From Microcystis aeruginosa NIES-843 (GTDB lineage: Bacteria > Cyanobacteriota > Cyanobacteriia > Cyanobacteriales > Microcystaceae), in assembly GCF_000010625.1 (NCBI RefSeq), contig NC_010296.1, positions 60,001 to 92,000 on the forward strand: 32,000 nt of DNA. Reading direction: 5' to 3'. A model generated the notes under the pieces. That model was not told where the DNA came from and searched no databases. It worked only from the letters and a program-made list of their open reading frames with translations. A program made the translations under genes and the position numbers. Positions 6,682 to 32,000 of the stretch are shown one piece after another (position 1 is the stretch's first letter; each line of letters begins with the position of its first letter).

Positions 6682-7036
6682 CGGAAATTTTGGGTCTGAA
6701 ACCCCGCCGTTCTAGGTTGGCTTTACGTTAGAATTAAAAGGCCAGTCTCGAAAACCAAGTGGACGGCGCAGCACCTTGAAAACTCGGCTTAGGGGGTTCC
6801 GACCAGAAAAGCTTGGCCGGGTAAAAAGTCGCGCGCAACAAGTACAAGAAGCTATAGGCGGTCAACGTACCGTGGGACACACGGAATCGGGCTTCTGAAA
6901 TGGGGCGAAAGTCTGTGGACTCTGTGTAAGACAGTACATGGTTTTTTAACTGTGGTATGCGACGGTGGTGGAAGCAGAAACTTAAATCGTGAGGTTTAGG
7001 AATCGCCGCACTTTTAGGGCGGCGAGGATGTCAACA
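6682..7036 (+). mobile_element. tnpB-less IS200/IS605-type miniature element (E1) with omega-RNA-like 3' scaffold
   Basis: It starts CGGAAATTTTGGGTCTGAAACCCCG and ends GGAATCGCCGCACTTTTAGGGCGGCGAGGATGTCAACA. It is collinear with E2 (14289-14650) and shares 3' motifs with the tnpB 3' end at 30892-31045. Confidence 0.55.
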
Positions 7037-13899: not shown

Positions 13900-14304
13900 A
13901 TGATTCCAGAAACAGACTCTTTACCCTGTAAACAAATCGGTGTGGCCGTAATTAGAGATGATCGAGATTTAATTTTAATCGATCGCCGTCTAGCCAAGGG
14001 ACTCCTGGGCGGTTTTTGGGAATTCCCCGGTGGCAAAATCGAAGGCAATGAAACGGTACAGGAATGTATTAAACGGGAGGTATTAGAAGAAATTGGCATT
14101 GAAATCGCAGTGGATAGTCATTTAATCACCATCGATCACACCTATAGTCATTTTCGGGTTAATCTACAAGTATATAACTGTCGTTATCTCAGCGGCGAAG
14201 CGCGGGCGATCGAATGTGAAGAAATCCGCTGGGTAACTATCCAGGAACTAGATAATTACACTTTCCCCGCGGCCAATCAAGAGATTATCGAAAATTTGGG
14301 TTAA
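13900..14304 (+). CDS. NUDIX hydrolase, MutT-like (8-oxo-dGTP diphosphatase family)
   Basis: Nudix box GGKIEGNETVQECIKREVLEEIGI. 134 aa. Confidence 0.8.
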   Translation: MIPETDSLPCKQIGVAVIRDDRDLILIDRRLAKGLLGGFWEFPGGKIEGNETVQECIKREVLEEIGIEIAVDSHLITIDHTYSHFRVNLQVYNCRYLSGEARAIECEEIRWVTIQELDNYTFPAANQEIIENLG

Positions 14305-14650
14305 AACCCCGTCCTTTTAGGACGGCTTTAAGCTACAATGGAAAAAGCGATAACCAAGCTAAAAACTGAACCTTGACAACAGATAGTAGGGGGTTTTGTT
14401 CAGAAAAGAATTCAAATTCGGCCTTGAACGAGTAAAACTTTCTAGGAAATAAGGTTGAACATTAGATTTTTTCGACTTGTTCAAAGTGGCCGTCCGGCAT
14501 CCGGACACTCAAAACGGACGGGTCGAAAGAGTCAGACTTAAGCAATTAAGCGTTTTTCGCTATCTGCGTCAACCCCATTGACGCGACCACCCTAAAAAAG
14601 TGGCGTGGTGAGGAATCGCCGTCCGTTTTACGGCGGCGAGGATGTCAACA
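14289..14650 (+). mobile_element. tnpB-less IS200/IS605-type miniature element (E2) with omega-RNA-like 3' half
   Basis: It starts CGAAAATTTGGGTTAAAACCCCGTCCTTTTAGGACGG (perfect CCGTCC/GGACGG hairpin) and ends GGAATCGCCGTCCGTTTTACGGCGGCGAGGATGTCAACA. Bases 14508-14650 align by eye with the reverse complement of 30892-31040, the 3' end of tnpB. Its 5' end overlaps the last codons of the NUDIX gene. Confidence 0.6.
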
Positions 14651-14705
14651 GAGCCTTAAAAGACATGGTAAACTCGAAATGATTGCTGCTAATCGTCGAG
14701 TAATT

Positions 14706-14942
14706 ATGCTTAATCCTTCTATTCGTCAAGAACCCCGCTATGAACCGGCCGCGGTTATTCCCCTAAAAAAAGACGCTTCCATTGTCGAGTGGTTAGAAAA
14801 AAATAATCGCATGATTCCCCGGGATAAAATCGCCGAACCGGATCTGACTCTCGAAGAAGATGTGGAACTATCTGAACTCATGGATGTCGATGATATCGGT
14901 TATGATGACGACGAGGATGAATTAGTCTTAGATGAAGATTAA
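14706..14942 (+). CDS. Small acidic conserved cyanobacterial protein (DUF3134-like)
   Basis: MLNPSIRQEPRYEPAAVIPLKKDASIVEWLE... with an acidic tail (DDIGYDDDEDELVLDED). The internal ATG at 14706 is preferred over the track start 14679. The family name is from memory. Confidence 0.5.
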   Translation: MLNPSIRQEPRYEPAAVIPLKKDASIVEWLEKNNRMIPRDKIAEPDLTLEEDVELSELMDVDDIGYDDDEDELVLDED

Positions 14943-30891: not shown

Positions 30892-31050
30892 TTGACATCC
30901 TCACCGCCGGGGCCGGACGGTGATGACCGGCAGATCAAACAAACTTAATTGAACGATCTTCGGTTGGGTTGACGCTTCACGGGATGCTGCTTCTTTAACA
31001 GAAGTCTTACACTTTCCTCTGCGTCCGTTTTTTGAGGTCTCCGATTGCCC
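30892..31050 (-). ncRNA. Predicted omega-RNA (reRNA) scaffold at the right end of the tnpB element
   Basis: The minus strand ends ...CACCGTCCGGCCCCGGCGGTGAGGATGTCAA (hairpin plus terminal motif). This position, overlapping the tnpB 3' end, is where IS200/IS605 TnpB guide RNAs are encoded. The 5' limit is approximate. Confidence 0.45.
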
Positions 31051-32000
31051 ACCGGCGACCTTGATATTAATTGCGGCGTTCACGTCTCGATCATGGAAAG
31101 TCCCACAGAAAAGACATTCCCACTCACGGATATTTAACGCTTTCTTCCCGCCGATATTCCCACAACAGGAACACCTCTGAGACGTTGGCTCCCATCGGGA
31201 AATTATCCGAAAATCACGCCCATATTTGTCAGATTTTGCCGATAGCATATCTCGAAAAGAACGCCATCCTAAATCTGATATAGCACGGGACAACTTGCGA
31301 TTTTTAACCATTCCCGATGTGTTTAAATCCTCTAAAATTATCGTTTGATTTTCACGAACAACTCTAGTGGATATTTTATGCAAGAAATCAGTGCGAGTGT
31401 CTTTAATCTTTGCGTGGATTCTAGCTACTCGTTTCCTAGCTTTTTCCCGTCGTTTACTTCCCTTCTGTTTTCTAGAAAGGTTTTTCCGATGCTCTTCTTA
31501 GTCGTTTTAATCGTTTCTTTAACGGTTTCGGTGCGTCTATCTTTTCTCCTGTTGAGAGGGTAGCAAAGGTAGCAATCCCTAGATCAATTCCCACTGACTC
31601 CCCATTATTGGGAAGTATTTCGGACTGAATCTCGACGACAAAACTAAGAAAGTATCGATCTGATGCGTCTTTGATCACGGTGACGCTAGAAGGTTTAGAA
31701 GGTAATGGGCGACTCCAAACTATTCTTAAATCACCGATTTTCGCTAAAGTAACGCAGTGTTGGTTAACGGTAAAACCATTATCGGTAAATCTTGCTAATT
31801 GTTTAGATTTACGCTTCTTAAATTTAGGAGGTTTGACTTTCTTTCCTTTTCTTTCTCCCTTGCAAGATGCAAAAAAGTTAGAATAGGCTGTCTCTAAGTC
31901 TCTCAAAGACTGCTGTAAAGGGATAGAAGAAACCTCGGTTAACCACTGTTTTTCTTCTGTTTTCTTGACTTGAGTTAGTCTTTTAGATAACTCAGTATAT
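30901..32000 (-). pseudogene. tnpB: IS200/IS605-family TnpB (OrfB, RuvC plus Zn-ribbon) RNA-guided nuclease gene, frameshifted; 5' end beyond the window
   Basis: The upstream frame reads ...QWLTEVSSIPLQQSLRDLETAYSNFF...VGIDLGIATFATLSTGEKI...RLRRASEKPF*. The downstream frame reads LSRKQKGSKRREKARKRVARIHAKIKDTRTDFLHKISTRVVRENQTIILEDLN...CSCCG...CLFCG..HDRDVNAAINI. Removing one A from the A5 run (T5 on the + strand, 31481-31485) restores a single ORF. Confidence 0.85.

Follow-up and report, generated by a model that had tools for sequence, protein, structure and literature searches.

The DNA analysed here is a 32,000-nt stretch of the Microcystis aeruginosa NIES-843 genome (NC_010296.1, positions 60,001 to 92,000), referred to below as the window. 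At one locus in the window, a gene for a NUDIX protein is followed by a gene for a DUF3134 protein and then by mraY, all on the + strand, and a short insertion, E2, separates the first two. E2 is a gene-less derivative of the IS200/IS605 insertion sequences (IS), of the kind known as palindrome-associated transposable elements (PATEs). The initial annotation had placed an element without an open reading frame (ORF) between the NUDIX and DUF3134-like genes, and had read it as a tnpB-less IS200/IS605-type element that keeps an omega-RNA scaffold. Both statements hold. E2 has no ORF of its own, those overlapping it in the ORF listing of the window being at most 49 aa long, and the reading as a scaffold-keeping element is supported by filled and empty sites, by left-end identity with complete elements, by a covariance-model match and by covariation within the predicted stems.

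The limits of E2 come from strains that lack it. The DUF3134 protein was looked up in public assemblies, where an identical protein with the same neighbouring genes occurs on many Microcystis assemblies, and ten places with the same gene order were retrieved (retrieved loci carry labels beginning with L). Seven of the ten are empty alleles. In these, the NUDIX protein is 140 aa long, ends in IIRALKDMVNSK and has a stop codon that overlaps the DUF3134 start. The empty junction, aligned for four of the seven, reads ...GAGATTAT/CAGAGCCTTAAAAG..., with its right side starting CAGAGCC, and the same junction sequence is found exactly in all seven. A 360-bp insert occupies this junction in NIES-843, in L126 and in L129, the last two from assemblies GCA_977016965.1 and GCA_008579225.1; L123 has the insert with a gap of Ns. 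Because the empty site reads ...GAGATTAT/CAGAGCC, E2 can be seen to have inserted 3' of TTAT, the presumed target-adjacent motif (TAM), and to end in TCAA; comparison of filled and empty sites shows neither a target duplication nor terminal inverted repeats. This is the insertion pattern of IS200/IS605 elements.

The first bases of E2 are thus CGAAAATTT..., immediately 3' of TTAT, and the last are ...GAGGATGTCAA. Of the limits first proposed, 14289 to 14650, the start is exact, whereas the end lies at the TCAA, at 14648. One C at the junction is ambiguous, but the base that follows TCAA is free to differ from copy to copy (T 20, A 17, C 15 and G 10 over 62 distinct flanks in the fetched loci), so the element can be assigned to 14289-14648. 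The left end of E2 had also been suspected of supplying the last codons of the NUDIX gene. Indeed, the last ten codons have been swapped for four (ENLG) and a stop, all from E2. Pfam PF00293 is found on the NUDIX orthologs.

The E2 copy in the window differs from those at the same site in L126 and L129 in two clustered patches, at 14492-14495 and 14556-14584. From L126/L129 to NIES-843, the first patch reads GGAG to GTCC and the second GGTGAAGCG...TTCAGCG to GCTATCTGCG...TTGACGCG. L123 shares the second patch with NIES-843, and its first patch falls inside the run of Ns. Both patch variants recur elsewhere, in copies at L170 and L133. This distribution suggests that the differences arose by gene conversion among the copies and not by point decay.

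Shared ends and the omega-RNA scaffold

Complete relatives indicate where E2 came from. In L131 and L132, the order is TTAT, left end, tnpA (Y1_Tnp, on the opposite strand), a TTGACA-17-TAGAAT promoter, tnpB, and a right end closing with GAGGATGTCAA; a PF01797 tnpA lies between the same left end and tnpB in L131, L132 and L169. Nucleotides 1-41 of E2 are 95% identical to the left end of L131 and L132. The CCGTCC/GGACGG hairpin noticed at the outset is part of this left end, with arms at 14309-14314 and 14320-14325, and it reads CCGTCG...CGACGG in L131/L132, a compensatory change. At the other end, E2 resembles the tnpB-linked copy L133, whose right end shows 94% identity to the last 83 nt of E2. 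Nucleotides 42-192 have no blastn similarity to L131-L133 or to L053. Because the two ends match and this part does not, E2 is a derivative that has kept both ends and ~168 nt of the tnpB 3' region, and it descends from elements with tnpA and tnpB. A Microcystis IS605 element has thus lost both genes while keeping its left end, its right end and the complete ~168-nt scaffold, which as a rule overlaps the 3' end of tnpB.

The window contains a tnpB gene of its own, and the 3' part of E2 aligns with the reverse complement of the end of this gene (30892-31075). Plain blastn within the window finds only 18 nt of this match, so the comparison called for a local alignment tested against shuffles, together with a covariance model. 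The alignment has z = 8.4 against shuffles, and the value is the same with the last 45 nt removed. The initial annotation had limited the homology to the last ~143 nt (14508-14650). The homology is real, but its start is further upstream, at 14481-14483, giving ~166-168 nt shared; every block named at the time was confirmed: CTCAAAACGGACG..GAAAG.GT.AGACTT, GCGTCAACCC, the hairpin and GAGGATGTCAA. The covariance model, R1, was built from 11 tnpB-linked 3' ends only (the resident tnpB and ten others, down to 72% at the protein level), and the window was searched with the speed filters off. Three matches were returned (Table 1), with no other below E = 0.27 in the window. E2 matches the model over its full length, so a proposed test, similarity to tnpB-linked omega-RNA regions by covariance model, came out in favour of homology. 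The other concern raised had been that E2 might be a known, unrelated non-coding RNA. No Rfam family claims the region: a gathering-score scan of the whole window returned none, and a permissive scan of 14200-14750 gave chance-level hits only (Va-907, E = 0.049; CRISPR-DR29, on the terminal hairpin, E = 0.92).

Structure is conserved as well. An alignment of 31 scaffolds, tnpB-linked and tnpB-less, gives a consensus of four local stems plus long-range helices. Standard pairs fill 96.4% of the cells, with both partners substituted in 21 of the 35 pairs. Covariation scores 0.392 in this alignment against a shuffle mean of 0.139, none of 500 shuffles reaching the observed value; a control in which the 3' partners were slid by 1-3 columns scores at most 0.084. 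When the alignment is restricted to the 22 tnpB-less copies, 18 of the 37 pairs show compensatory changes; stem 2 has five pairs, and in four of them both partners change in 9-14 sequences. The compensatory change originally claimed for the terminal hairpin is confirmed, with G:C in E2 and A:T at the tnpB end; across the 31 relatives this pair is AU 14, CG 8, GC 4, UG 2 and UA 1. For the long-range helices, RNAalifold proposes GCGUC:GAUGU, or GACGU:GCGUC with CAUUC:GGAUG, all in invariant columns where no covariation signal is possible.

A perfect 11-nt complementarity between AAAACGGACGG (14511-14521) and CCGTCCGTTTT (14619-14629) dominates the single-sequence fold of E2. It was rejected as a conserved structure; relatives with other terminal hairpins do not keep it. 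In Microcystis copies, a different fold is possible, in which the invariant AAAACGGACGG block pairs with the 5' arm of the terminal hairpin.

A candidate promoter follows the left end, suggested by the conserved position of a -10-like hexamer. A TAnnnT hexamer comes 5-6 nt after the left-end hairpin in most PATE left ends, and in 31 of 35 distinct ones such a hexamer is found within 14 nt. The hexamer is TGn-extended in 20 of the 35, compared with 2.7% of shuffles. In IS copies with only tnpB, such as L053, a similar -10 element stands directly ahead of tnpB.

Table 1. Features of E2, its flanks and related elements; coordinates are positions in the window.
Feature	Position	Strand	Basis or remark
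NUDIX gene, 3' end replaced by E2 insertion	13900..14304	+	134 aa vs 140 aa in empty-site strains
TTAT target tetranucleotide, presumed TAM	14285..14288	+	empty-site sequence; TTAT before relatives
E2, tnpB-less IS200/IS605 derivative (PATE)	14289..14648	+	360 bp; filled vs empty alleles
E2 left end: mini-hairpin GGGTTAAAACCC and TnpA-type hairpin CCGTCC-TTTTA-GGACGG (14309-14325)	14289..14329	+	95% identical to L131/L132
TACAAT, -10-like hexamer pointing into E2, putative promoter	14334..14339	+	conserved position
Middle segment, E2-family-specific, partly common to E1	14340..14480	+	not in full-length IS copies
Omega-RNA scaffold homolog, four covarying local stems	14483..14648	+	covariance model R1
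R1 match, E2	14483-14648	+	103.6 bits, E = 8e-27; model positions 1-168 (full)
Terminal hairpin with bulged T; right-end hairpin for TnpA and last scaffold stem	14616..14639	+	9 pairs, 7 with compensatory changes in 31 relatives
TCAA, last bases of E2, right-end cleavage motif	14645..14648	+	followed by any of the four bases across 62 distinct flanks
Predicted guide, flanking DNA CAGAGCCTTAAAAGACATGG	14649..14668	+	immediately 3' of scaffold
DUF3134 gene, cut off from ATGA overlap with NUDIX gene	14679..14942	+	PF11332
E1, second tnpB-less element, sister subfamily, after TCAT	6682..7034	+	copies in L118, L089, L116, L044, L074
R1 match, E1	6864-7034	+	34.0 bits, E = 4.5e-8
Resident tnpB, frameshifted near 31470, running off the window end	30892..32000	-	three-frame translation; omega-RNA region 30892-31062
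R1 match, tnpB end	30892-31062	-	185.4 bits, E = 7e-49

Predicted guide and function

What could E2 do at this site? In TnpB systems the guide is the DNA flanking the scaffold. The initial annotation had predicted this for E2, placing the start of the guide at AGAGCC; the flank is the predicted guide, but it starts one base earlier, at 14649 (CAGAGCC...). The guide sequence CAGAGCCTTAAAAGACATGG is unique within the window. A proposed check was to look elsewhere for the TAM together with the 16-20 nt past the element, and a match was found: TTAT with the first 16 nt of the guide (CAGAGCCTTAAAAGAC) occurs exactly in seven of the ten retrieved Microcystis loci, all of them empty alleles. The predicted natural target is the empty allele of the same locus in other strains, rather than a site elsewhere in the genome. 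In the retention/homing model for IS605 elements, omega-RNA-guided TnpB cuts the element-free site and recombination restores the element (Meers et al. 2023, PMC10055086). That TAM and guide together equal the empty allele fits the prediction of this model.

Taken together, it is likely that E2 is a gene-less IS605-type miniature, moved in trans by TnpA and predicted to give an omega-RNA guide for TnpB made elsewhere. The course of events began with insertion 3' of TTAT, into the last codons of the NUDIX gene and in only some Microcystis strains. Y1 TnpA from full-length copies elsewhere would mobilise E2 in trans, and precise excision by TnpA would regenerate GAGATTATCAGAGCC. Transcription could start from the -10 element just inside the left end, or reach E2 by read-through from the same-strand NUDIX gene. 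The transcript would then be processed to an omega RNA carrying the guide CAGAGCCTTAAAAGAC... and be loaded into TnpB from another IS copy; E2 would need TnpB in trans because it keeps the omega-RNA region without tnpB. The loaded TnpB would cut the empty allele (TTAT-CAGAGCC...), and recombination would restore or copy E2, by the mechanism of retention and homing that Meers et al. 2023 showed for IS605. E2 probably supplies the guide to TnpB made elsewhere.

Several observations weigh against this reading. First, the partners are not at hand: no tnpA is found in the window and its only tnpB is frameshifted, so that a TnpA/TnpB partner in the same genome is putative. Second, stem 1 of this E2 copy contains two non-standard pairs, at a place that could fold instead into a GTCCGG/CCGGAC hairpin, and the copy departs from the consensus in an otherwise 90%-conserved GTGAAG block just before GCGTCAACCC; at the same locus, the scaffold follows the consensus in L126 and L129. 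Third, much of the scaffold covariation may have arisen while the scaffold was still inside tnpB-bearing elements, and the covariation in the terminal hairpin could reflect recognition of DNA by TnpA rather than an RNA function. Fourth, derivatives of 153-224 bp with only 83-115 nt of scaffold sit at many sites, and because of these a full scaffold is not required for the family to spread.

These points bear on a rival explanation in which E2 is an RNA-inert relic: a deletion derivative that TnpA can move, with no working guide, in which the omega-RNA part is kept only because it adjoins the right end and the deletion chanced to end there. The shortened derivatives, here at many distinct sites, speak for such a relic, as do the stem 1 mismatches and the changes in the conserved single-stranded block of this copy, the finding of neither a sigma-70 consensus promoter (with a -35 required) nor an intrinsic terminator in 14200-14750, and the pseudogene state of the tnpB in the window. 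However, by analogy with IS608, TnpA-type recognition requires the terminal hairpin region only, and yet many PATE families with different middle sequences keep the whole 168 nt, and all start the scaffold at the same point, (A)GTCGC. In addition, stems 1-3, outside the terminal hairpin, keep their pairing through compensatory changes in tnpB-less copies, and the -10 element pointing into the scaffold is conserved. There is a small but real chance that the relic explanation is right.

Two other explanations fare worse. As the initial annotation had also considered, the host could have co-opted E2 as a regulatory or antisense RNA in cis; the genes affected would be those for NUDIX and DUF3134 and mraY. 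E2 does sit within a run of same-strand genes, where it has changed the NUDIX C-terminus and broken the ATGA overlap with DUF3134. Nevertheless, the insertion is present or absent by strain, with an empty site in seven of the ten places, the same element is found at dozens of unrelated sites, and nothing in E2 apart from its flank is specific to the locus, making co-option very improbable. That the likeness to the tnpB end is due to chance, as the 18-nt blastn match might suggest, or to an unrelated known non-coding RNA family, has practically no probability, being refuted by the alignment z-score, the covariation test and the covariance model, with Va-907 as the best incidental Rfam hit.

For the preferred reading, a guide for TnpB supplied from elsewhere, the state of tnpB in Microcystis matters. 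The resident gene has a single frameshift, with ...RRASEKPF* where ...RRASRKNLSRKQKGSK is expected, and three intact RuvC motifs; its stop codon falls within the terminal hairpin, in the 3' arm, and its left end is outside the window. By appearance, it is either a pseudogene of recent origin or the product of a sequencing slip in an A run. With the repaired TnpB as query, intact proteins of 403-414 aa that are 88-96% identical are abundant in Microcystis; the relatives have the domains HTH_OrfB_IS605, OrfB_IS605 and Cas12f1-like_TNB. The closest cluster, P0001, has an intact protein of 414 aa, 96% identical to the resident tnpB product, and 510 member sequences. Microcystis is also known to contain many IS605 copies and IS200-type tnpA genes.

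Spread of the family and its middle module

E2 is one of many copies. A 97% identical copy is found at a different locus (L035), and E2-type right ends adjoin at least 62 distinct flanks in the fetched loci; because of this, the family is mobile. TTAT precedes 27 of the 27 complete metagenomic elements with an E2-identical or near-identical left end among the matches listed, and it also precedes the IS605 copies L131-L133. Sister families follow TCAT, TGAC or TGAT. Derivatives of 153-266 bp keep E2 from nt 1 to about nt 40-113 and only the last 83, 115 or ~145-175 nt. They include L167, L195, L156, L150, L212 and L179, and they occupy many different TTAT sites.

A scan of species-representative genomes with the right-end motif returned at least 120 stretches. 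Among the matches listed, the terminal module GGAATC-hairpin-GAGGATGTCAA occurs in many cyanobacteria, with further cases in proteobacteria, actinomycetes and archaea. The module is nearly identical in gammaproteobacteria, Streptomyces, a haloarchaeon and a Desulfurococcales archaeon (e.g. L020, L066, L069, L073). By sequence, it is a very widely conserved right end of this TnpB clade. Among the cyanobacterial matches listed with sufficient sequence upstream, the majority are ORF-less elements of 163-455 bp, mostly ~340-400 bp, with a left end upstream. A metagenome scan with the exact E2-class block AAGCGTCAACCCCATTCA listed 45 short gene-less elements and two full-length elements of ~1.8 kb with a recognisable left end, a ratio that is biased to the PATE consensus because the search pattern was exact. 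A plasmid collection gave matches to the left end only, and a phage collection gave no match.

The second tnpB-less element in the window, E1, starts with CGGAAATTTT and ends with GAGGATGTCAA, and its 5' half resembles that of E2. Relatives of E1 that are 74-81% identical occur in other cyanobacterial genera (L044, L074).

The middle segment of E2 is found only inside E2-family copies, and shorter derivatives have lost its 3' part by deletion, from about nt 110 of E2 onward. It does not resemble the TnpA sequence of L131 by eye; no alignment was made. Many gene-less relatives of 340-410 bp have a middle module of ~140-200 nt between the left-end promoter and the scaffold that full-length IS copies lack. 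Examples are L180:1012-1165, L217:3236-3360, L168:5224-5365 and L038:2488-2630, and common motifs are CCCGCCC, GTGAAACCGAG, GGGAAGC, GGCAATGG and CCAACCTTGAA. The middle modules of other PATE families have no match in Rfam. RNAalifold gives a weak consensus for the modules (-4.8 kcal/mol), with one small hairpin that covaries. In L008:5565-5760, L116:1990-2080 and L089:2920-3030, short tandem or GC-rich repeat blocks are inserted in the loop of the left-end hairpin or within the middle segment; L008, for instance, has repeated CTTCGACAAGCTCA units.

Could the tnpB-less elements of this cyanobacterial IS605 lineage be self-sustaining "guide-only" parasites rather than mere decay products? The idea arises because they keep a putative promoter, a full scaffold and a conserved middle module of their own, and because they far outnumber tnpB-bearing copies among the fetched loci, which were selected by pattern. 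We regard it as a long shot. If it were true, the middle module could be a new RNA part that, for example, stabilises, processes or loads the guide outside the context of a tnpB mRNA.

Relation to known elements and implications

E2 has close parallels in known systems. PATEs of the IS200/IS605 family were named in Haloquadratum (PMC3119063), and those of Geobacillus stearothermophilus "often encode omega RNAs", requiring TnpB in trans (Meers et al. 2023, PMC10055086). Like these, E2 is a few hundred base pairs long, has IS200/IS605 ends and no protein-coding gene, would need mobilisation in trans and keeps the omega-RNA region. Unlike them, it belongs to a cyanobacterial (Microcystis) lineage with a TTAT target, has a ~140-nt family-specific middle segment that is not in the parental IS, and has a series of still shorter derivatives. 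PATEs bearing an omega RNA have already been described (Meers et al. 2023, PMC10055086), and E2 adds a Microcystis case.

Membership in the IS200/IS605 family is evident from tetranucleotide-specific insertion, from subterminal imperfect hairpins and from the Y1 TnpA that is linked to the same ends in relatives. The nearest full-length elements are the Microcystis IS605 elements with tnpA and tnpB (ISMae10-16 class in NIES-843, PMC2779907), which share the left end at 95% identity, a homologous right end and omega-RNA region, and the same TTAT/TCAA; they differ in having both genes and a length of ~1.3-1.8 kb. One IS605 relative is annotated ISTel2. In architecture, E2 can be likened to TnpB omega RNAs (reRNAs, right-end element RNAs) such as that of ISDra2 (PMC8612924, PMC10097598), with a right-end scaffold on the sense strand of tnpB, a guide from the flank and a TAM that equals the target site. 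E2 likewise combines same-strand homology to the tnpB 3' end with a conserved structure and a flank guide whose target adjoins a TAM. In contrast to the ISDra2 type, it has no overlapping tnpB ORF, and its expression would need the left-end promoter or read-through. Finally, Microcystis has MITEs (miniature inverted-repeat transposable elements), including MaeMITEa-h (PMC2779907) and a 187-nt ISL3-type MITE (PMC11448079), that are likewise short, multi-copy and non-autonomous. E2 differs from these in having neither terminal inverted repeats nor a target duplication, and it would move by a single-strand Y1 mechanism rather than by a DDE transposase.

What are the implications of E2? First, our understanding of how TnpB systems work is unchanged by it. 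Second, E2-like elements have neither of the features used by MITE searches, inverted repeats and target duplication, and the search by Kaneko et al. in Microcystis used inverted repeats (PMC2779907); they match no Rfam family either. Third, E2 matters for annotation, in that it gives a NUDIX hydrolase a different C-terminus and comes between two translationally coupled genes. Fourth, the locus is a natural example of the modularity of IS200/IS605 elements, in which the ends, the transposase, the nuclease and the guide RNA may each be on a different copy. Fifth, since sequenced Microcystis strains include both filled and empty alleles, the exact sequence of the predicted TnpB target is known. 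The retention/homing model can for that reason be tested easily in a cyanobacterium that forms blooms and is ecologically important.

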